Source: Felis catus
Taxonomy: Eukaryota
Direction of reading: 5' to 3'
Length of the DNA: 64,000 nucleotides
Assembly (NCBI RefSeq): GCF_018350175.1
Contig: NC_058375.1
Coordinates: forward strand, 36,642,001-36,706,000
A model generated the notes under the pieces. It did no database searches, was not told the DNA's origin, and worked only from the letters and a program-made list of their open reading frames with translations. Position 1 is the stretch's first letter. Every line of letters starts with the position of its first letter. Of this stretch, positions 3,656-58,077 are shown in pieces. The translations under genes and the position numbers were made by a program.

Positions 3656-6021
3656 AAATAGATCACTGCAAAATGAGATTACAACCTTTCTGGTTGAGAA
3701 CCTTTCCCTTTATTGGTAGTATTCTCCTCTGCTTCTGCAGATGATTCACTCACTACCAGGACTCCATTGGGTGGATCAACCAGCCCCAAGAGCACTGTTT
3801 ATGGGTTAAGACCTAAGGGTGTGAGTGGATTAATGACCCAGGGTGGTTGGTCAATTGCCTCATTTTAATGGACACCTTTTAATACCTCTGCCCAGTTCAC
3901 CATGATATTCTTCTTCCCAATTTGTACATGACCTGCTTGCCCCTGTCCATAGTTGATGGGACACAGGCTGAATCAAAGTTTCTTTCATAAGTATTTTGGG
4001 GCATCTGGGTGGCTCAGTCGGTTAAGCATCCAACTTCAGCTCAGGTCATGATCTCACGGTTCATGAGTTTGAGCCCCTCATTGGCCTCTGTGCTGACAGT
4101 TCAGAGCCTAGAGCCTGCTTCGGGTTCTGTGTCCCCCTCTCTCTCTGCCCCTCCCCTGCTTGTGTTCTCTCTCTCTCAAAAATAAACATTAAAAAAATTT
4201 TTTTTAAGTATTTAGAATAATACCTCAAACAGGGACTGGTCTCTCCAGGGGTCTAGACCTATAGCATAGAATCTCTGGAGCTGACTGTGGCCACTCTACT
4301 ATGAGAGCTGAGTTCAAAGGAAATCAGTGTTCAGAAAGTGAAGAAAAATGAAGGAAATGCTCTGAAAGGGGTAGGGATGAGGAATGGAACGCAAGCAATG
4401 GTCAATCTCTTGAGTCTGTGGCTCCCTAATACCCAGCTTTGTCCCTGTCCCTGTTACAGGCTTACCTGTAACCTTTGCAGGGCCCAGAGCAAGAATGTAA
4501 ATGGAGGCTCACGTAAAATATGTCAAAATACTTGAAAGTTATAAATCAAGTTAACAAACAATTAAATAAAATATATTAAATCATCTTATCTTGACAAATA
4601 TACTTTCATACAAAGGTTCTGGAAGACCTTTTTTTGGAAGACCAGTTCAAATTCAGGATTCATGGGTCCTTAGAGTTCTGACAGATACAACATGGTAGTT
4701 GGGAGAGAGCAGACTCCCATCTCTTCCCACCCCTGGTTTCACCCTGCACTGTGAAGAGGGCCCTTGTGCATATGTCCAAGCCTCTCCCATCGATCCACAA
4801 ACAGCTATCCCTTTACCACCCCTGTGGTCTAAAGGTATTGACACTGACATTCCTGTCTATCCTTAGGAGAACAGATCCATGGAAAAGGCCCAATGCAGAT
4901 CTTGAAACAAGTTTCTTGCGGTCATTTGGGCACAATTCCAAGAGTATGATTAAGAAGAGGGAAGTAAGGGCTCTGGATGAATAAATTTCCTTGACTCCAC
5001 TGATTTCTCATTGTCTGAGGCTAGGGGGGCTTAGAGCCCTTTAGATCCTGTCCTGGGCCTCCTCTTTCCCAGGTCTATTAGGGGTTCCTTGTATGAATTC
5101 TTTGTTTAAACAGGGTCTGACTAGATACTACTACTTGCAACCCAAGAATCCTAACTAAGGCCATTACCTTTATCCTCTGAACCACTGTCCAGTTTTCTCA
5201 CTCCTTCCCGAAGGGGCCTGTAGTAGTGCCTGAGAGGGCTTTCTCATGAACCCTAATGCTTACCAAGTGGGCCAGAAACAGGGAAGCAGCTCTTTTCATA
5301 GGTTCTCCCACCAGTGGTAAGTTATTTTGATCAATCTCTGTGACTTCCTCTCCCTCTTTCAGGTCATACATTATACTTCCAGTTAGCCACTTTGAGTTTA
5401 ATGGGCAGCCCCAAATCCTAAAACAGCATTGTATTTCATTCTTGTCTTTTCTGGCACCACACTCAACATCATATTAGAGTTTATGGGCCTCGCCTCCCAT
5501 CTGATTTGGGAGTCCTCCAAAATGGGAAGGGTGTTCAAATGCTAGGCAGCCAAAAATGTCAAATTTCTGTATAACCCCATTAATCAGGACTTGAAGCCAT
5601 CTCCTTTGGAGGATGCTCTTGTCCTCTCCCTTGGGAAACTTTGAGCATTGTCTTTGGGGACAACCCCCATACACATATACTTGGCTTGGATCCTACCCAT
5701 CACTTCTCTCTCCAAACTCTACATTCATAGTTAGGGTAGTAATGATTTGCTCTGGACTATACAGTCAAATGCTACCATAATAAGCATGGTACCCAAGGCT
5801 TCCTGATAGACCTCTTTCAAATCCTGACTCTCAGTGGCCTAAGTATAGCTAGTGAAGAGAAAGCACCAGCCTGCTCACAGGCCTATAATAGCCAGTTGCC
5901 AGAAGCAACTAGCCTAGCACTGGGAAACAAATGAGCAAGTGAGGTGTATGTAGTCTAATACCTGACTCATGTGCTCTGTCTCAGAACTTACCTGTGATTT
6001 CCCACTTTTGATCCAGGAACT

Positions 6022-6209
6022 CTTTTTTTTTTTTTTTTTAAGTTTATTTATTTTGATAGAATGTGAGCAAGGGAGGGGCAGAGAGAGAGAATCCCAAGCA
6101 GGCTCGGCACTATCAGCTCAGAGCCCAATGCAGGGCTCTAACTCACAAACTGTGAGATCATGACCTGAGCCAAAACGCTTAACCAAATGCTCCACCCAGG
6201 CACCTGCCC
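6022..6209 (-). mobile_element. CanSINE inserted in the Gypsy RNase H remnant
   Basis: Reverse SINE with poly-T; flanks ccaggaa(c/t)tcttttttt duplicated. Confidence 0.85.
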
Positions 6210-6745
6210 CAGGAATTCTTTTTTTAATAGTGTTGTACCTCACTATTAGACAAAGTAACTTGACATCCCTGGAAGCAAAGTTAACAAAACTATAAACTCT
6301 CTCTCATCTTCATTTTTCTAACATAGTACCTACTCTGATGCCCTTAAAATTGATATCAATGCAGGTGATCAATTGCTAGGACAAGCCTGAACTGAGTAGC
6401 TCACCAAGGTTACCAAGGCCATGGACTCCAGCAAGGGGTCAAGGGAGTGAGAGAATTGATTTCCTTCTGGATTTTAAGCTGACTTCTAAATTGGTGCTCT
6501 GGGTCTGTCTTGATAATGCCGAGTTAGAAAACAAAAGATGTGTGTAGCCCTGGAAGAATTTTTCATAAACATTGTGAATATTACTAGTTTTCCATATTTG
6601 ATAGGGTGGGACTAGTTATTAATAATGGATATCTTCTCATGGCCTGTGTTTATCCCCATGTGATATTACATGCCATCCTCTTTTATTGAGATAAAAAAAA
6701 AATGACTCAAGTTGTAAAATCTCCCACATGGTCTAGTATCACCAT

Positions 6746-7228
6746 TGTAATAGCATGACTTTTTTAGGTATAAGTGACAGAAAACTAACTTAAACCAAAT
6801 AAAAGCATAGTCTTACTTGACAAACAGCTAAGTAAAGGTGCTCAAACAACATTATCAGGAACCAGATTCATTCTCATTTCTCATTCCCTCTGATGTTTCC
6901 CCAGGTGGTGCCAAGGATAGTCTCCAGCAGCTGCAGGCTACATTCCATCTGCTTAACAACCCCATCCAGCAGAGTGCAAGTTTCTCCACAGAATTGTGGA
7001 AAAATTCTGGGGGTTAAGTCTCATTGGCCTAGCGTGGGTCACATGCTCACGCCTGAACCAATCACGAGTCCAGTAAGATGGAATGTTCTAATTGGATGGG
7101 CCTAGGTCATGTGGCACCCTTAGAAGCAGAGCATGAGATCAGCTGCACCCAAGCTACATAGATTGAGAACTGGGGAGGAGGGGCATTTTCTCAGAGAAAA
7201 TATGGGCAGACCAAAAACACTTTACTGT
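6746..7228. mobile_element. MLT1-like LTR inserted in the Gypsy RT remnant
   Basis: MLT1-type motifs (aagtgacagaaaactaact; ctgaaccaatcac..tggatgggcctaggtcatgtg). RT-like peptide resumes on both sides. Confidence 0.6.
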
Positions 7229-10200
7229 TGAAGAGCCACTGTTTATGCTTTCTCAAGGTTTTGGAGAATTTACATATGTGTGTATATGCATAATGAATAT
7301 ATAAATATTACATATAAATGAGTAAATAAAACACTTCAGATAAATTCACATGACCAATCATGTTCTCCAGTAACCTCTGAGCAGTAACAGGAGTTACTGA
7401 AATGACCATCCCTTCATTTTGGTAGACCTACACAAAATAGATAAAATCCACCCTGTTTATGTCCTCCACAGTCATAGGGATTTTATAATACCTGCTCTGA
7501 CATCCAATGCTGGAAACAATGGACTCCATAGGAAGTGGCTAAGCCATCCTGTATAAGGAACACAGTGTGCTGGACTATTTTGGACTGTCTATTCAGAGCC
7601 AAGAAATACACACAAACCCAGATCCTACATGATTTTTTTTTCTTCACTATAACAAAAGGAAATCTATGGGGTATGAACCCCAAAGATGATGCAGTTAATC
7701 AGTAGGTCTTCAAAATGATCTAAAAAATCATCCATCTCAGACAACATAGGCTTCGTGCACTGTTTTCTAAAGAGCCTGGGTTTCCAACCTCTAGCTTTCA
7801 TTACTTACCCTCAGCCCAGTCAGTCTCCATTCTTGGAGAGGGAAAACTGTTCCTTAAAGCTTTAAGATAGAGGACCCAGAGTGGAAGCAGACAAGTTGGG
7901 AATTTTTTGGCTCTTCCTTGCCTTGATTTTCCTATGGCTTCCACATCTGAATGAGGGTAGAACATCCCAGATGCTCTGTCCCTGCATACTTCTGATAAAC
8001 ACTTTAAAGAGTCTAGACTTGATCCCTACCAATATACCTAACTCTCCTGAACACTGTGAGGGTCCAACATATAACTATAGATTTTTCACCTCTTCCCTTA
8101 TCTCCATAAGAACTGGAGCCCCACAATCAGTACTAAAACCACATCTGACCCATTTGATTTCTGTCATGGAGGGTGGCTTGGGTGCTTGCTACTTGTGAAT
8201 TCACCATCAAACAGAATTTATGACTTGATGCTTTTCTTGGCTGCCCCTCTTCCTAGGATTCTGCCTCCAGATGACAAAGATGGGATCTTCTAGGAGGCCT
8301 TGAGCCTCCTGTTTTGAGGGTTGAAAATAGCTCAAACTCCAAGAACATCTTCACTTCCTCTTTCCTTGATGCTCTTCAGCTTTAGGAATGCTATAGCCAG
8401 GATTTCTTCTTGGCCAAGAGCTCCTTCACCTCCAACTTCCTCCAGTGTTCTGCCTTTCAGAGGCTCAGAAGTGTCCATTATGATACCCTTTCTCTAAACC
8501 TATAGGGCCATCATTAGTGCTTTCATCTGTCCCATTTAGTCCTCATGTATGGTAGTCATTGGAGTCTTTGCTTGATATCTACAACCACCTCAGATGATTG
8601 AGTTTCCTTTACTCCAAGACTTGAGCTGCCTCCCATCCTCCTTTTCCCATGTTAGTTGGAAGAATCTAAAAGACCACTGTGAGTCTGGCAGCTGGAATTT
8701 TCCCCAAAGCCTTACCCTGGGACAACCCTAGTCCTTGCCTGTTACACAGGGGACCTGATTCCTACTGTTTGGATCTTTGGCTCCTATTTCCTCTACCTTC
8801 TATAAGAGTGTCTCCGCCCCCAATTCAAAAGCAGGTATCTCTTGTCACACTCTCTGATAGAGCAGAGGGGAAAAAATCTGAGCAACTCTGTGGTTATAAA
8901 CCCTCCAAACTGCTCAATTGGTTGGAACATTCAGTACTCGACCAACTGACACTGAAGCCTTGGTAGCCTTGAAAATGTCCCTGTCACTCAGACGTTCTGC
9001 TATCACTGCTCCACATCGGGTATCCACCACTCACAGCATCTCAGCAATGTGCCCAACCAAGAACACACTTTCCTCATGCCAGGGGTGGCCTTCCTCAAAA
9101 ATACTCCCAACTTTTGGATCCTCATAAACCTCTGTATTAACCAAATTGAGTTTCCTTTCACCCATCTCCAGTCACTAGGCCAATAATTCTGGTGGCAGCT
9201 GGGGCTCTTTCATTAGAGGAGAACTTGTAATCATATCCAAGACTGAAACTCTGTTCCCTATTATTTCCCCGAGACTGCAAACTAGTTAACATCTTTAGCA
9301 AACTTGAGGAGGGCTGTGTTCTCACCGCTCCTGAAGACCTCTTTGGGCCCTCTTTATCTGCTCAAAGACCTAACAGAAGTTCACACAGCCTCTTCAATTT
9401 CAGGTTTTTCATGGTTCTTTTTGAATCTCACAATTCATAGAGGCTTCTAGAAGTCTATATCTACCTCCGTGTGCAATTTTCTAGTGTTATCTTGGTCACT
9501 GTCCTAAACATTTAGTTGGCTTTATCTTTAGTAGTGATGAGTCCATGGTACAGATATAAACTTAAGTTAGATAAAAAGATACACAGATACAGATATACAG
9601 TAGCATGTAGAAATCCCAGATAGAACCCCCAAAGCATAACCCACATGTCTTCAGGTCATTTGCCTGTAAAAAAAAAATGAGATTATATTATTTAATAACT
9701 TTTTATACCAAAAGGTATAAACACCCATTTCCCTACTTATGGGAATTAACCCCACCTCAAAATGTCTTTCAGCTATTTCTGAGGGTCTCTCCAGGGCCCC
9801 TTGAGTCCTCAAGAATAAGTTCAAAAGCTAGTCATCTTGCCACCATACTTTTTCAGCTTTCGTGGCAGATGACTCCCAGGAGTCTCCAATAGTGGCCACA
9901 AGCAGGGACCCATTCTGGCCTCCAGGAGAAACAATGCATTCTATCTTGGCTGTTGCCACCTTTGCTGAAGGTGCTGGAATCTACTCTCTCGAGGCTGGTA
10001 TGACTTACTACTGCTGTCCTGATGCCACCTACCTTCCTCTTTCTCTCCTTCCCATTATGTTAGTTTCCTAAGATCTGGGTTATACAGCTTTACTCTCCCC
10101 GATATCTCGTTAGAATTGGATGTGGGAGTTGAGGAGGAAGGAAGAATGAGGGATACCTGTGCTCCCCTACCACTCAATCTTCACAGAGAGTGTACTATCA

Positions 10201-11729: not shown

Positions 11730-12689
11730 ATGTGAGATTAGACAGTTTGGTGTTAGCAAAATTAGCATTGACACATAGATCAATGAAACAGAATAGTGAT
11801 CACAGAAATAGTCCCACACATATAAGCTCATTAACTTTTGACAAAAGTACAAAGGCAATTCAATGGAAAAAGGATAATCTTTTCAACAATGGTGCTAGAA
11901 CAATTAGAGGTCCACACACCAAAAAAAAATTTAAAAAAAGAACCCCAACACACACCTCACACCTTATATAAAAATTAACTCAAAATGGATAACAGGGGCT
12001 CCTGGGTAGTTCAGTTGGTTAAACGTCCGAATTTGGCTTAGGTCATGATCTCACAGCTTGTGGGTTCGAGCCCCACATCAGGCTCTCTGCTCTCAGCACA
12101 GAGTCCTCTTCAGATCCTCTGTCTCCCTCTCTCTGCTCCTACCCCACTTGCACTCTCTGTCTCTCAAAAATAAATAAACATTTTTAAAAAATGGATCATA
12201 GGGGCGCCTGGGTGGCGCAGTCGGTTAACCGTCCGACTTCAGCCAGGTCACGATCTCGCGGTCCGTGAGTTCGAGCCCCGCGTCAGGCTCTGGGCTGATG
12301 GCTCGGAGCCTGGAGCCTGTTTCCGATTCTGTGTCTCCCTCTCTCTCTGCCCCTCCCCCGTTCATGCTCTGTCTCTCTCTGTCCCAAAANNNNNNNNNNN
12401 NNNNNNNNNNNNNNNNNNNNNNNNNNNNNNNNNNNNNNNNNNNNNNNNNNNNNNNNNNNNNNNNNNNNNNNNNNNNNNNNNNNNNNNNNNNNNNNNNNNN
12501 NNNNNNNNNNNNNNNNNNNNNNNNNNNNTTAGAAATGACATAAAGTACAATCTATAAAATTAGAAAATTGATAAACTAGACTTCCTCAAAATTAAAATTT
12601 TCTGCTTGCAAAGGATAATGTTGAGAAAAAAAGAAAAGAGAAAATATTGGGAAATCACTTACCCAACAAAGGTCTTATATCTAAAGATT

Positions 12690-12733
<44 letters not shown>

Positions 12734-15090
12734 TTTTTTTTTTTTTTTTTTTTGATGTTTATTTTTGAGAGAAAGAGAACACGCAAGTTGGGGAGGGTCA
12801 GAGAGACAGAGAGAGACAGAGACAGAGGATCCAAAGCAGGCTCTGTGCTGACAGCAGTGAGCCAGATGTGGGGCTCAAACTCACAAACTGCAAGATCATG
12901 ACCTGAGCTGAATTCACTCAACCGACTGAGCCACCTATGTGCCCCAAGGTCTTATATCTAGAGTACATAAAGAACTTAGCAATAAGAAGGGTGCTGGGGG
13001 GGTCTCAGTTGGTTAAGCATCCCACTCTTTTTTTAATTTTTTTTTTTACATTTATTTATTTTTGAGAGACAGAGCACAAGTCGGGGAGGGGCAGAGAGAG
13101 AAGGAGACACAATCTGAAGCAGGGACCAGGCTCCGAGCTGTCAGCACAGAGCCCAACACAGGGATTGAACTCACAAACTGTGAGATCATGACCTGAGCCG
13201 AAGTCGGACTCTTAACCAACTGAGTCACCCAGGCGCCCTGTGTCCCACTCTTGATTTCAGCTCAGGTCATGATCTCATGGTGGTGAGATTGAGCCCCGCA
13301 TCGGGTTCCACGCTAACAGCCCAGAGCCTGCTTGGGATACTTTCTCTCTTTCTCTCAAAACTAACTAACAAACAAACAAACATTAAAAAAAAGAATTTAA
13401 GGTACCTGGGTGGCTCAGTTGGTTAAGCATCCAACTTCAGGTCAGGTTCGTGAGTTGGATCCCCGCATCAGGCTCTGTGCTGACAGCTCAGAGCCTGGAG
13501 CCTACTTTGGATTCTACGTCTCCCTCTCTCTCTGCCCCTCTCCTGCTCGCACTCTGTCTCTCTCTTTCTCAAAAAAATAAAATAAAATAAATTTTTAAAA
13601 TGTAAAAAAACTTTAAAAAAAGAAGTTGGGGCGCCTGGGTGGCTCAGTCGGTTAAGCGGCCGACTTTGGCTCAGGTCATGATCTTGCGGTCCATGGGTTC
13701 AAGCTCCGTGTCGGGCTCTGTGCTGACAGCTCAGAGCCTGGAGCCTGTTTCAGATTCTGTGTCTCCCTCTCTCTCTGACCCTCCCCCGTTCATGCTCTCT
13801 CTCTCTCTGTCTCAAAAATAAATAAACGTTAAAAACATTTTTTTAAATAAAATAAAATAAAAATAAAAAAAGAAGTTAGTAATAAGAAAACAAACCACTT
13901 CATTAAAAATNNNNNNNNNNNNNNNNNNNNNNNNNNNNNNNNNNNNNNNNNNNNNNNNNNNNNNNNNNNNNNNNNNNNNNNNNNNNNNNNNNNNNNNNNN
14001 NNNNNNNNNNNNNNNNNNNNNNNNNNNNNNNNNNNNNNNNNNNNNNNNNNNNNNNAACCCTAATAATACTGAGGGCTGGTGAGAATATGGAGCAGATGAA
14101 ACTCTCTTACATGGTCAGTGTAAATTTAAAATTGTACAGCAATGGGGTGCCTGGGTGGCTCAGTCGGTTAAGCGCCTGACTTTGGCTCAGGTCATGATCT
14201 CGCAGTTTGTGAGTTTGAGCCCCATGTCCAGCTCTGTGCTGACAGCTCAGAGCCTGGAGCCTGGTTTGGATTCTGTGTCTCCCTCTCTCTCTGCCCCTCC
14301 CCTAATCACCCTCTGTCTCTGCCTCTGTCTCTCTCTCTATCTCTCAAAAATAAACATTTAAAAAATTTAAAAAAATAAAAATTAAAAAAGATAAAATGGT
14401 ACAGCCACTTTGGAAAACAGTTTAACACTTTATTATAAAATTAAACATACAATTATCATATGACCCATAAATTCCACTCCTAGGTACTTACCTAAGAAAA
14501 ATGAAGATTTACATTCACACAAAAACCTGCACACAAATGTGTAAAGCAGCTTCATCATAATCACAAAAAACTGGAAACACAAATATCTTTTAACTGGTGA
14601 GTAGACAAACTGGTATATCCATATAGACAAATACTACTCAGCAATAAGAAAGAATAAATTACTGATACACTCAACAACCTAAATGAACGTCAAATGCATT
14701 ACACTGGGTAAAAGAAGCCAAACTCAAGGGGCATCTGGGTGGCTCAGTTGGTTAAGCAACCAACTTCGGCTCAGACCATGATCTTGCGGTTTGTGAGTTC
14801 AAGCCCCACATCGGGCTCTCTGCTGTCAGCACAGAGCCTGCTTTGGATTCTCTGTCCTCCTGCCCTGGCCTCCCCCACTCTCTCGCAAAAATAAATAAAC
14901 ATTTAAAAAAAGAAGAGACCAAACTCAAAAGGCGACTTGCTGTATGATTCTATTTATATGTTGTTCAGAAAAATATAAAATTATAGGAACAGAAAATAAT
15001 GACTACCAAGAACTGGGATGAAGGGAGGTATTGACTATAAAAGGGTAGTACGAGAGACATTTTTCTGGATAATAGAACTGTTCTGTATCT
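11730..15090 (+). mobile_element. Old LINE-1 ORF2 3' end/3' UTR fragment with many nested SINEs
   Basis: L1 hallmarks (ttcaatggaaaaaggataatcttttcaacaatggtgct; cacaccttatataaaaattaactcaaaatggat; attccactcctaggta). SINEs at ~11995, 12201, 12687(-), 12989, 13030(-), 13401, 13628, 14144, 14728. Confidence 0.85.
12201..12389 (+). mobile_element. Young feline SINE (SINEC_Fc-type), tail in N gap
   Basis: CpG-rich intact head ggggcgcctgggtggcgcagtcggttaa..cagccaggtcacgatctcgcggtccgtgag. Confidence 0.85.
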
Positions 15091-15209
15091 TGAGAGCTTG
15101 TTTGGAGGTTCTAGCACAGGAGCTCAGCTACTCGTATACTCTTGACCAAAAATCTGTCCTCCTCTATTGGGGAAGGTTGTCCTCTTCCACTGAGTGTGCA
15201 GCTTCTGGA
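15089..15209 (-). pseudogene. 7SK snRNA retrocopy, 3'-truncated; 5' part probably in the adjacent N gap
   Basis: Reverse complement reads ..GAAGCTGCACACTCAGTGGAAGAGGACAACCTTCCCCAATAGAGGAGGACAGATTTTTGGTCAAGAGTATACGAGTAGCTGAGCTCCTGTGCTAGAACCTCCAAACAAGCTCTCAAG, i.e. the middle of 7SK with CpG decay. Confidence 0.9.
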
Positions 15210-15389
15210 NNNNNNNNNNNNNNNNNNNNNNNNNNNNNNNNNNNNNNNNNNNNNNNNNNNNNNNNNNNNNNNNNNNNNNNNNNNNNNNNNNNNNNNNNNN
15301 NNNNNNNNNNNNNNNNNNNNNNNNNNNNNNNNNNNNNNNNNNNNNNNNNNNNNNNNNNNNNNNNNNNNNNNNNNNNCGATTGTTTAAAC

Positions 15390-18323: not shown

Positions 18324-18548
18324 TTTTTTTTTTTAATTTTTTTTTCAACGTTTATTTATTTTTGGGACAGAGAGAGACAGAGCATGAACGGGGGAGGAGC
18401 AGAGAGAGAGGGAGACACAGAATCGGAAACAGGCTCCAGGCTCCGAGCCATCAGCCCAGAGCCCGACGCGGGGCTCGAACTCACGGACCACGAGACCGTG
18501 ACCTGGCTGAAGTCGGACGCTTAACCGACTGCGCCACCCAGGCGCCCC
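18324..18548 (-). mobile_element. Young feline SINE with TSD
   Basis: CpG-intact; TSD tgttgatcttta at 18312-18323 and 18549-18560. Confidence 0.92.
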
Positions 18549-18967
18549 TGTTGATCTTTAAATACATCCCACATACTCCCACTTCTGAGTCTTTACACTT
18601 GCTCTACCCTTTGCCTGAAACGTTCTTCCCCCAAATGCAGGCAGGGCTGGCTTCTTCCCTTCTTGTAGGTTTCTGATCAAATATCACTTTACCAATGAAG
18701 TCTCCTCTGTCCACCCTATATAAAATGGCATATATTCCCCTGGTTAGGGGCAAAGCCCAGATTTAAAACCAGTTCTGACTCCAAAGCCAGATGACAAGGT
18801 AATAGTCATGTGGGTCAAAGGGAATAGAAGTCTCCATCACTAAACCAATCACTGTGATGATTGGTCAGGCCAGGGTCTCAATGCTCATTCCTGGAATTCA
18901 GGGGTGGGGCAAGCCCATTTAAACCACATGGACCAAAATAGAGAAGGGATGTTCCTCAAAGGAAAAT

Positions 18968-36137: not shown

Positions 36138-38592
36138 GTAAGTATGGGGGTTGTGGGCTCTTTGGGGCTCCCTATAAGAGTGGGTCACAACCTAAGCAGA
36201 GCCCAAGCTGGGAAATAGGACACTGCTGTGTCCAGACTCTGTGGTACCAATTTCCCATTATGATAGGGTGCAGAATTCTCCCCAAATGCCGAGTCCTGGT
36301 CTCAGGAGCAGCCTGACTGCTACACAAGTTGGGGAGGAGAAGCGTAGGAGAAGGTCCTCCCTTCTAGGAAGCTTCAGCCCAGATTTAGCGCAGGGCAGTG
36401 TAGGCTAACAGGAGCAATTGTCCCCTTTTATAGGGACTGGGGGCCCAGTGAGAGGAAGAGGTTTGCCCAAGCTTACCTAGTGATCAAGGAAATTCAGTGG
36501 CCTCTGTAGGACAGGCAGCTGAAAGGAGAAATGCCTGAAGACCTCAGAGCAGAGAGTCGGCCTCAAGCAGCCTTTATTCATTCAACAAACCTCAAGCAGT
36601 CTTTATTCATTCAACAAACATTTATGTGCTAAGACTGTGCTAAGTGCTGGGGTGAAAGGTGAGCAAGCCCTTTCTCTGCCCTTGAGGATCTCAGATCCAG
36701 CAAAGCAGATAGGCAGACGGTGGCAACGTACTGTGTCTGGCCTTAGCAGAGGGGCTATGGGAGCCCACAGGAGGGGCCTGAACCCTGGTCAGAGAAGACT
36801 ATCTGGAGGAAATAGGTGAGGCTGGGAATTTGCACTGGGTGAGGAGGTTGTAAAGCATGCAAAAAGACCCAGAGGCAATGAAATCGGATATTGTTCAGAA
36901 AACCAGGAACAGATTGTATAGGGCATGTTTGAGGAAGCTGAGTAATGAGGCATGAACCCTGGAGATGGTGGTGGAGATGGGGAGAAATGGACGAAGACAA
37001 AGGCCTCAGATGGTGGCCAAGGGGCAGAAGGGGGGCAAGGCAGACAGAGGTTTTGGAGGTAATGTCTGTGGCTCTGGTATGAGCAACCTGGGGGATGTCC
37101 CACAGGCAGCTGCATACCCAATGGGGCTGCAGCTCTGGTTGGAGCTGGACATGGATATTTGGAAGTCATGTGACCACAAATGGTCAGTGAAGCCACTGAG
37201 TGGGTAACAGCACTCAGGCAGAGTGACCTCTGAGAAACCCAACTTACAAGGATTATGTGGAGAAACGGCCACCAGGAAGCAGATAGAGAAAGAGCAGTGG
37301 AAAGAAATCAAGGAGAGCACAATCTCAGAGAGATCAGAAGGGCATGGCACATGAAGTGTCCACTAGAGTTAGCACAGCATGGCACCACAGACCTTAGAGC
37401 CACACTAGAGTGGCTTAGAGTCAGTGAAAAGTGAGGAAGTAGAGACAGGAAGTGTAGATGGATTTTTGGAGAAATTGGGCTAGAGGTGAATAACCTGACT
37501 CCAATATGGTCCATGCCTTGGGCTTCTTTTAGCTTCAGGGCACTAGCCTTTATCCATATATCTGGAGAAGGCAAAGGGATCCCAGCAATATGGAGATAGT
37601 AGGGGCTCCGGTCCGAGGGGGTTAAAGGCAAATCCGGTTTGGTTTCTGGCCTCTGTTGGTCAGGCTTTGCCAGGCTGGGCAGGGCAGGGCAGGGCAGGTC
37701 TCAACCTCCTTGAAATTTGACCCTTATAGGCTGGGAGCCCAGCTCTCTGTCCTTGGGCAAACATGCCTGGGATCCAGCCACAATCTGCCACCTGGTTCTA
37801 GCCTCAGTTTCTATAGCTGGGCACCAAGGTGATGTCAGGCTGATTCATCTGCGGATACTCTGGATCAGGATGGCTTTGCTCTAAGAGGTGTGGCATCTGG
37901 ATAGTGTACCTCCTGCCCAGTCTGGGCCTCAGAATCCCCTGAGGTTTGGGGTTGAGCAAGAGAGAGCCTCTAAAAGAAACCCTGGCTGTACTCCCCCTCT
38001 GGTGCCTCAGATTTCCTGTGAGGCAAAGAGAGGTCTAGGTTAGATGAAGGGCAGGCCTCGAGTTTGATCCTGGAGAGGGGCCAAATGGGGCCTCAAGGTA
38101 GGTGTCCCTTCTCCCCGAGTCCCTCTCCAAGGTTGGAAGCAGGTGTAAACCTCAGCCCCACCTCTGTTGCCATGGTGACTGTTGAGCCTGTTCAAGCTAC
38201 AACCCCACTGTTTCACCTATCAGAAGACAGAGGCGTTTCACTCTGCAAGGAAATGGGGTGGAGGGGGTACCCTGCTGCCCTCACCTGCTTATTTTCACTC
38301 CTAGCTATGTGGCTTGACCCTGACAGCAGTGAGGAAAAGTCTTGCCCTTCTCCCATCCTGTAGATATTTCTGGAACCCCTGATCCCATTTATATCTGCAT
38401 AGGTGCTGGCTATGGGTGGCCCAGCTCCCATTTTTCTGGCTCTACAGAATATTTTCCTCCGTGCAGGATGAGTTTTTAAGACTCCTTAGCCAATAAAGGG
38501 AGAAACTTTCTCATTTCCCATCTTCCTGACTCAACTGCATGGTAAGGAGCTGCTTGCCCGCACTGTTTTATGGTCTGCCTCTCTGTCCCCAG

Positions 38593-38799
38593 CTGTGTGG
38601 CGTTGCCCTGTTGGCAGTGGGCATCTGGGTGTCCGTCGATGGGTCATCCTTCCTGAAGATCTTCGGGCCGCTGTCATCCAGTGCCATGCAGTTTGTCAAC
38701 GTGGGCTACTTCCTCATCGCAGCTGGTGCTGTGCTCTTTGCTCTTGGTTTCCTGGGCTGCTACGGTGCTCAGACTGAGAACAAGTGTGCCCTCATGATG
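38593..38799 (+). CDS. TSPAN1: Tetraspanin-1 coding exon 2
   Basis: [28 protein letters not shown]; AG/GT sites, 207 nt. Confidence 0.95.
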
Positions 38800-39006
38800 G
38801 TGTGTCAAACCCAGCTCCATAGGCCCATAACAGAGACCCGGGGCCCCCTCACCCTTGACACCAGGCTCTGGGGGTCCCCAAACCGTGCTCTGGACTCCAG
38901 AGGCCTCAGCAGAGGGGGCAACTGCCTTGTTTTAATGGGTGGTGGGTTACAATAAGTGAGGCAGGAGGGACTGTCTCTAAAATTCAGACCTCTGTTCCCC
39001 ATTCAG

Positions 39007-50909: not shown

Positions 50910-51305
<396 letters not shown>

Positions 51306-56019: not shown

Positions 56020-56293
56020 TCCAAGCACAAATCGCCGAGCCCCACCCATTCCAGGGCCAGACGTTCAGACGTGTGCACAGCCCTCGACCGACACACACAC
56101 ATACACACGCACACGCACACGCGCGCGCGGCTCTGCGCTGCTTTTCTGAGTGTTACGGCGCCCTTCGACCGCCCCCGCGCGGCGCGGGAGGGGACCCACC
56201 GGTTCCGCTCGGCGCTAGTCGCGGAGAAAGGAGGACCCCTGGGAACAAGATCCCGCCGTCCGGTCTCCCAGCACTTTTAAGCGGTAGGCCCGC
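56020..56293 (+). promoter_or_regulatory. LURAP1: LURAP1 CpG-island promoter/5' UTR
   Basis: CpG-rich region with a (CA/CG)n tract directly upstream of the ATG. Confidence 0.7.
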
Positions 56294-56491
56294 ATGGAGG
56301 GGACTGCGGAGTCCCAATCGCCTGACCTTCGAGACGTGGAGGGCAAGGTGGGCAGGAAGACCCCTGAAGGGCTGCTCCGCGGGCTGCGAGGCGAATGGGA
56401 GCCAGGAACCTCTGGCGCCCTGCTGCTCCCGGGGGCGCCCAACACGGGCCACGGCCTGGGGGACAAGATCATGGCGCTGAGGATGGAGCTG
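56294..56491 (+). CDS. LURAP1: Leucine-rich adaptor protein 1, coding exon 1 (rest beyond window)
   Basis: MEGTAESQSPDLRDVEGKVGRKTPEGLLRGLRG..LGDKIMALRMEL; donor CTG|GTGAGT; 198 nt; synteny. Confidence 0.92.
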
Positions 56492-58077
56492 GTGAGTGTG
56501 GGCTCCATGGGCCAGGGGATGGAATCCCCAGCTAGGGCTGAGGGACGGACTTATGCCCCCAGAGTTGGACAGGAGAGGAGAGCATTAAAATTCCCCATCT
56601 TACTCCTCAGGGTCCCTTCCAGATCAATCCTTAAACCCTGGGGTCCATTAATTGCCCCTCCCAAGGGTAAGTGGGGTGTTGATGGGTCCTGAAGACTTGA
56701 GGTGGGAGGCATGGGTTCTAGGAAGTTTTTACTGCAAAATAATTGGGTGGGGAGAGGTGAGGATTGGGAAGCACTGAGAACCTAGCACAGCCCAAATCTC
56801 CCCCACCCCACCCCTCCACCAGGTGCCATCTATCCCCTGGCCACCATTAAAGGGCAACCAGTTTCTTCTCTTCCTGCAAACTGGGTTGCTCCTCTGAGGC
56901 CTCAGTGTTCATGACAGGATTTAGCACAGAAGAGATCTGGGTGAAAACCTCCTGGACTAGGGCCACTAAAGACAGCCTCCCTTCCTGCAATGTTCTCCCA
57001 CCCCCATTTAAAATATTTGGAAGTTCCTAGAACCTGAGCAGTCAGAATAGCAGCACCATCAGCATTGGCTCCATCATCTCCGAGCCCCCCAAGGATATTT
57101 ATATTTTATCTGTAACTTCTTGGGGAGAAGAGAAGGAAACAGGCACCCTCCCCCTCCCCTGTTGCTGCTGGTCTAGATTCAGAGCCAGAAGGGCATCTGG
57201 GGCTGCCTAGGCTCCCCAAGGCCCTAGTTCCGGTGAAGGGGGTGATTCACACCTGCCACCACTTTGCAGCCAGTTCTGGGGAACCGAAGAATTCTCTCTG
57301 GCTTAGAACCAGGAGGCCATGGTGAGTGTGTCAGTTAATAGGTTTTCCTGGAGCCCCACTGTCTGCCCAGTTCTGTGCCAGGCTGGGCTGTGAGAGAGCA
57401 GAGAAGGAGGGCACGGGAGCTCCTAGACAGCCTGCAAGTCTGAGAGGAGAGCCTTGTGGGCAGAGTAATCAGGGAAGGCTCGTGGGGGAAGGATTCGAAT
57501 GCCATGTGTGCACTTGACCCTGAAGGTTGGAGGTGAGTGCCAGATTCTTCAGGGCAGGGCTGTGACTGCCCACCTAAGGGAGGGGCTCGAATTTGCCTCA
57601 TTGTACAAAGTGGTGCCAGGTATCATGTTGAGCACTTTACAAAATATTCGCTTAATACTCACAGCAACCCTATTTGGCAAGTGATCTTTTATAGATAAAG
57701 AAACTGAGGCACAGAGAGGTTAAATAACTACTCAAGGTCATATAAAAAGTAAAATGCAGAGCCAGGCTTTGAATCCAGATGATCTGCCTGCACTTTACAT
57801 TTTTAGCGTTGAGATCTGCTTTGTGCCAGACACTTTAAAGACATTTTACGTCATTGAAGTGAGAAGAGCAGTCATCATTCCTCCATAGGATGAAGCATGC
57901 TTGCAGGTGTTCAGGGGCTTGCCTGGGCTCACTCAGGAGCTCCGTGGTGGAGCCATGCCTCCTCTCTGGCTCAGAACTCTTCTGCCTTTGATGGAGATTT
58001 TCTGGTTGTAAACTTTAAGGGGGTGCATTTAACTTCTGATCAGGTCTCTGCATTCTGTTTTTTAATGTTTATTTTGG

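Follow-up and report, generated by a model that had tools for sequence, protein, structure and literature searches.

Are the decayed coding remnants on the minus strand of one feline locus the remains of a single retrotransposon, and if so, of what kind and how complete? The locus lies in a stretch of Felis catus DNA 64,000 nucleotides (nt) long (NCBI RefSeq assembly GCF_018350175.1, contig NC_058375.1, positions 36,642,001 to 36,706,000 of the forward strand), here called the window, and all coordinates are positions within it. An earlier note had described a near full-length fossil Gypsy element with a PNMA/Ma-type gag and a complete colinear pol, and the peptides that it quoted are all present in the minus-strand translations, in the order given. 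Our analysis indicates that the region 9630-5300 (-) is in all probability one dead Gypsy (Metaviridae) long terminal repeat (LTR) retrotransposon, in which a primer site, a PNMA-type gag, reverse transcriptase (RT), and RNase H follow one another in the normal sequence. The insertion probably took place in an early ancestor of the placentals, and the copy has probably been in neutral decay ever since. The element sequence is free of N gaps. It carries stops and frameshifts throughout, it has lost the RT catalytic motif, it has received two later insertions, and it is too short across the integrase region. This copy of the element encodes nothing today.

Gypsy-type RT and RNase H

Standard searches, including Pfam, barely detect the remnants. 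Neither the six whole frames nor 24 short pieces gave a match to Pfam RVT_1, RT_RNaseH, or rve; PDB searches with RT pieces returned chance matches or none, and word-index protein searches returned no match. In the ESM Atlas, the third set obtained with a 71-residue RT piece was a cluster with RVT_1 in 11% of its members, at 0.91, which serves as a lead only, and the 3' open frame gave no usable match. Intact relatives were therefore fetched as references. The first reference set consists of 70 metagenome-contig loci found by a degenerate RT motif; RVT_1, RT_RNaseH, Integrase_H2C2, and rve are encoded by their long frames. Of the gag frames, 13 were scanned; each matches Pfam PNMA, 12 of them above the cut-off. 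By frameshift-aware profile alignment, in which the segments between inserts were tested one by one, the following features were placed in this part of pol:

7233..7741, minus strand: RT fingers and palm, with two to five frameshifts and two stops, depending on the reference
7272..7318, minus strand: TA/CA-rich tract at the expected position of the RT catalytic YxDD
6544..6704, minus strand: RT thumb remnant (0 of 200 shuffles and 4 of 344 real-DNA tiles score as high)
6259..6329, minus strand: middle part of RNase H, with the motif FASR, colinear (reference 711-731)
5889..6019, minus strand: C-terminal part of RNase H (reference 744-790)

Over 7720-7233, the RT reached a profile score of 143, compared with 40±4 (maximum 56) for 30 shuffles and 43 for the opposite strand, and 50 of 156 residues are identical in the alignment with one intact relative, L010. 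The C-terminal part of RNase H scored 56, which was equalled by none of 200 shuffles and none of 464 real tiles. These two results bear out the Gypsy origin. The FASR piece, which had also been offered as RNase H, is not significant by itself (23 of 200 shuffles as high). Furthermore, the three best matches of a pol hidden Markov model in the whole window all fall within the element and are colinear (profile 378-425, 426-499, and 691-709). A tblastn search of the window with 92 long open reading frames (ORFs) of the intact relatives placed 29 rows in the element, with a best E of 2.5e-5. The 16 rows outside it (best E 1.4e-4; filters off) were gag ORFs on GC-rich DNA and were taken as composition noise.

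The RT catalytic motif has been replaced by the TA/CA tract, which adds nine codons in the alignments and contains no DD. TRF did not call this tract; a similar one reads through in three of the short database ORFs discussed below (P0001, P0003, and P0007).

The kind of RT was also judged from single sequences. Against the RTs of the first set (n=56), the window RT scored up to 140 (mean 94), and against 96 other Gypsy RTs, up to 99 (mean 63); with 14 retroviral RTs, a set that leaves ERVL and MaLR outside, it scored at most 33, the level of the reversed control. A quick IQ-TREE run, with the window added to 82 RTs kept from 114 full ones after dereplication at 80%, placed the window RT in a clade of 35 rows (SH-aLRT 96); of the 34 rows that it joins there, 32 carry a gag that fits a PNMA-type profile.

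Three scans for Gypsy motifs in viral contigs returned nothing. Among GTDB prokaryote assemblies, about 120 contigs (L071-L190) contain eukaryotic Gypsy RT motifs, and an RT domain was obtained from 96 of them; these contigs are host or eukaryote contamination of metagenome-assembled genomes.

A PNMA-type gag preceded by a primer site

Upstream of pol and on the same strand, the following features were found:

9632..10150, minus strand: putative remnant of the 5' LTR (low confidence)
9611..9631, minus strand: tRNA-Pro-like primer binding site, with three mismatches and one extra base relative to the 20-mer
9255..9461, minus strand: remnant, with stops, of the gag N-terminal domain PNMA_N (RRM-like; Pfam PF20846, PNMA2 8uyo)
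8752..9125, minus strand: gag capsid remnant, split across two frames (PNMA2 capsid 8rb3)

Among the 24 short pieces, PNMA_N was matched at E 0.0011 and 19.7 bits, below the cut-off of 27 bits, and on the six whole frames the E was only 0.081; the by-catch of these Pfam scans (WHAMM-JMY_N, Gastrin, and SatRNA_48) consists of chance matches. When 177,635 PDB sequences were searched, the top match for the N-terminal domain was PNMA2 (8uyo, residues 14-84; E 0.021), and E fell to 0.005 with a two-copy profile, to which a second copy had been added. The top match for 8979-8752 in the same database was the PNMA2 capsid (8rb3, residues 63-137; E 0.5), and a second capsid stretch matches PNMA2 160-192 weakly. 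Each gag match is weak alone; both top matches are to PNMA2 and are colinear, and in this respect the PNMA/Ma-type gag of the earlier note stands. The capsid did not rise above the null with distant metagenome gag profiles, gags that are too distant to confirm a PNMA assignment. A zinc knuckle did not exceed shuffles, and a subclade profile rescued neither protease, zinc knuckle, capsid, nor integrase.

The primer site had not been seen before and is new in this analysis. Across 424 tiles from both strands of the window, it scores highest (27; next best, 19), and only 1 of 2000 shuffles scored as high; since the tRNA was picked after the sequence had been seen, the real significance is lower by a factor of some tens. 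Its position at 9631-9611 is beyond the span previously given to the element (5170..9499), so that the upstream limit of that span was too short. A primer site at this position also implies an LTR remnant upstream of 9632, and an A-rich signal near 9705-9690 accompanies it. The left limit of this putative LTR, 10150, is a guess that was taken from an adjoining stretch, 10400-10150 (-), presumably the 3' end of an L2-like repeat as recognised by eye. LTR-pair searches found no second copy of the putative LTR downstream, and a purine run at 5070-5058 is followed by no recognisable LTR. Loss of the LTR pair, the polypurine tract, and the target-site duplication is expected for an old fossil.

The same primer site bears on whether the internal region of an ERVL/MaLR endogenous retrovirus has been misread as Gypsy. 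Primer sites for tRNA-Pro are common in retroviruses (12 of 20 fetched retroviral loci), the 18-mer occurs without mismatch at 12 of the 210 loci fetched, every one retroviral, and the element contains an LTR that we take to be of MaLR type. However, the 14 retroviral RTs scored at background (ERVL not being in that set), the RNase H fits the Gypsy profile, and the gag matches PNMA2. A retroviral origin is thus extremely improbable, and the earlier Gypsy reading holds against it as far as those 14 RTs reach.

It is also conceivable that two unrelated neighbours have been joined, with gag coming from a PNMA-family pseudogene and pol from an independent Gypsy fragment. The interval from capsid to RT (8700-7750) has no significant match and is shorter than in the intact relatives, which speaks for this reading. 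Yet the parts lie on one strand and in the right order, the primer site comes immediately before gag, and the RT groups with elements that themselves carry a PNMA-type gag; consequently, there is only a slim chance that the two parts have separate origins. The single Gypsy element that we favour has what is found in Metaviridae: a Gypsy-type RT followed by RNase H, a gag upstream of pol on the same strand, and, with the tRNA chosen post hoc, a tRNA primer site before gag.

Several points weigh against this assignment. No single match reaches a curated Pfam cut-off, and profiles built from metagenome gags score the gag no higher than the null. Profile alignments compared with shuffles revealed no protease, zinc knuckle, or integrase, and neither an LTR pair nor an outer target-site duplication was found. 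The same primer site occurs near gag in none of 19 intact relatives checked. The reference set for the Gypsy versus retroviral comparison includes neither ERVL nor MaLR, and in the quick tree search the branch of the window RT is very long (3.41). Finally, the motif used to gather the first reference set was chosen for its resemblance to the window RT, and the same set supplied the profile for reading the tree row, so that the placement of the pol lineage is partly circular.

Lost parts, later insertions, and decay

How much of the element survives depends on the two ends of pol, and its age depends on what was inserted later. The features concerned are as follows:

8157..8213, minus strand: candidate protease motif, aligned to the protease active-site region but not above chance
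5617..5852, minus strand: possible integrase zinc-finger remnant, at the expected place but not above chance
5318..5375, minus strand: possible integrase C-terminal piece, marginal (3 of 200 shuffles and 4 of 406 real tiles as high; also 2 of 150 and 10 of 150)
6746..7219, minus strand: LTR-like insert (TG...CA) splitting the RT
6013..6220, minus strand: carnivore-type short interspersed element (SINE) within RNase H

Alignment above the null was obtained for RT, its thumb, and the C-terminal part of RNase H, and for neither protease nor integrase. The protease motif that had been proposed was equalled by 97 of 150 shuffles and, in a separate test, by 52 of 200. If the candidate motif is real, about 555 nt separate it from the RT anchor, compared with about 1,000-1,160 nt in intact relatives, and the protease-RT linker is 150-200 codons short. 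For the zinc finger, 55 of 150 shuffles and, in a separate test, 100 of 200 were as high. The integrase core stretch including TPKSDG, which had been equated with the integrase motif HPQxDG, was matched by 84 of 200 shuffles, and relatives of the lineage carry a motif of the YHP(R/M)GN type; this equation is therefore rejected. The stretch that holds TPKSDG, 5570-5490 (-), is presumably the start of another MaLR-type LTR, and its similarity to the larger insert stays at chance level (59 versus a null of 60).

From the RNase H anchor at 6013 to 5375 there are about 640 nt, compared with 565 codons (about 1,700 nt) in L019, and the spacing from zinc finger to C-terminal piece is 292-293 codons in all five relatives that have both landmarks. 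With so much sequence lacking, the integrase core is not there: either a loss of about 350 codons has taken the catalytic core with it, or nothing of the integrase can be detected. Thus, gag, RT, and RNase H are colinear as had been claimed, but neither a complete pol nor a near full-length element is present, since the integrase core and the normal domain spacing are both absent.

A SINE, a TA tract, and an MLT1 LTR had been said to interrupt the element. All three interruptions are there, with the proviso that the insert at 7219-6746 is one that we take to be MLT1-type. The RT stops at reference residue 549 on one side of it and resumes at residue 569 about 41 nt past the other, so that almost no RT has been lost, and the insert must be later than the element, as the earlier note had held. 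It has no recognisable target-site duplication, and no significant second copy was found in the three places tried (best 86 versus a null of 65±9, maximum 101). The SINE belongs to the SINE families of the window (D10/D12/D19) and is flanked by a 12-nt target-site duplication with 11 of 12 positions identical (6220-6209 and 6024-6013).

A phmmer search of 1.84 billion proteins returned seven matches, of which one (P0002) was a tandem-repeat artefact and was dropped. The other six are short ORFs from other genomes that map onto the locus with 62-82% identity and 2-9 frameshifts, corresponding by simulation to roughly 10-20% nucleotide divergence. An identical junction between RT and insert is found in three clusters (P0001/P0008, P0003, and P0009). 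At least three other genomes therefore share this decayed locus together with its LTR-like insert, and the remaining three mapped ORFs could be orthologues or paralogues. Because the three clusters run through the same junction, their lineages separated only after the insert had arrived, and hence also after the element itself. Identity to the window is about equal in RT and insert (92/125 and 107/148 for P0008; 58/94 and 30/46 for P0003), as expected under neutral decay. On sequence grounds, the element thus appears to be old and neutral, with no sign of function.

It should be noted that these spurious short frames from a dead locus (P0001-P0009) stand as predicted proteins in public protein collections. 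One of them, P0005, matches PNMA_N at E 3e-4 and could pass for a PNMA gene.

Survival of so old an element over a long colinear stretch might suggest a different history, in which a once-domesticated PNMA-family gag-pol gene, the counterpart of RTL1/PEG10, was later pseudogenised, or in which a non-coding element is still constrained. In addition, five RNA-labelled runs (five rows recorded as RNA) contain part of the stretch as contigs; such contigs cannot tell RNA from DNA and are no evidence on expression. A domesticated PNMA gene has an intact ORF under purifying selection. Here, however, stops or frameshifts are found in every copy examined, and all the other copies carry frameshifts. The divergence of the RT from that of other mammals is that of the inserted LTR, three sequence clusters share an LTR-type insert in the RT, and P0005 ends at the window's own stop in the PNMA_N frame. 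Past domestication or present constraint is therefore very improbable, and neutral decay of a Gypsy element remains the preferred explanation.

From the known biology of the family, the living element would have moved by copy-and-paste, with tRNA-Pro as its primer and a PNMA2-like RBD-capsid Gag as its shell. It would have integrated at this locus most likely in a placental ancestor, and parts of the protease-RT linker and of the integrase may have been lost after insertion. An LTR-type insert would then have entered the RT before several mammal lineages split. A microsatellite presumably arose in the RT, and the SINE would have entered RNase H later, in carnivores.

Genomic surroundings and comparison with known systems

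The window is mammalian DNA that is dense in one SINE family. Two of the copies, 12200-12389 and 18360-18549, lie in opposite orientation and are 97% complementary over 190 nt, far closer than other copies, which reflects either a young subfamily or conversion. A fragment derived from 7SK RNA (Rfam RF00100, 59 bits) lies at 15053-15222 (-) and is cut by an assembly gap. At 38530-38802 (+) there is a tetraspanin exon (Pfam E 5.5e-13), which we take to belong to TSPAN1, and this would put the element upstream of that gene. Frames at about 51010-51305 (-) and 56288-56530 (+), for which Pfam gave no match, are presumably exons of POMGNT1 and LURAP1.

No paper describing the locus was found, and supplements might list it; repeat libraries, which were outside the search, probably annotate it. 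The part of the PMC11011659 supplement that was consulted does not mention PIK3R3 or TSPAN1. Table 4 of PMC5753468 places MamGyp-int and its LTRs (MamGypLTR1/2) among the human Gypsy traces, and the PNMA2 ORF has been described as the Gag part of an ancient MamGyp-int (10.1101/2023.02.09.527862). In PMC3670739, Table 1 puts the PNMA genes in the Barthez lineage, and mammalian Metaviridae are said to survive only as "highly fragmented molecular fossils". That paper gives one therian event of PNMA domestication, whereas PMC11011659 (section 10) gives one each in placentals and marsupials; the same section reports the RBD-CA-NC architecture in reptile, amphibian, and fish metaviruses, e.g., Gypsy-30_AMi.

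The element is likely one more neutral copy of a mammalian family that has already been catalogued; among the closest known systems is MamGyp-int of Repbase/Dfam, with MamGypsy2 as a further family name. A doubtful but larger claim is that the locus may be one of very few placental sites at which the lineage of the PNMA progenitor has kept its primer site, RBD-capsid gag, RT, and RNase H together in a single copy, with a pol that the MamGyp library models do not represent. If so, the PNMA progenitor could be placed on the RT tree and the last Gypsy activity in the mammalian stem could be dated. A single orthologous copy that ties a PNMA-type gag to RT and RNase H would also provide a slower-evolving marker for the number of PNMA domestications. 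Given a family type already catalogued and no sign of function, the gain is one for retroelement paleovirology rather than for cell biology.

Compared with intact Gypsy elements that carry a PNMA-type gag (L003, L010, L019, L020, and L049), the fossil has the same domain order, and its RT and RNase H are 30-39% identical in the aligned pieces. It differs from them in lacking the RT catalytic motif, the LTR pair, about 350 codons between RNase H and the integrase C-terminus, and, if the protease motif is right, about 150-200 codons of the protease-RT linker. MamGyp-int, like the window element, has a PNMA-type gag; the two were compared by eye at the capsid only, where the MamGyp-int translation in the PMC11011659 supplement resembles 9113-8752 with roughly one third identity, a level that would also fit a sister family. 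Unlike the fossil, which keeps a primer site, RT, and RNase H but has neither an open frame nor a sign of constraint, the PNMA genes have none of those three parts. What the PNMA family (PNMA2; PNMA_N PF20846, PNMA PF14893) does share with the element is the arrangement of gag itself, an RBD-like N-terminal domain followed by a capsid.

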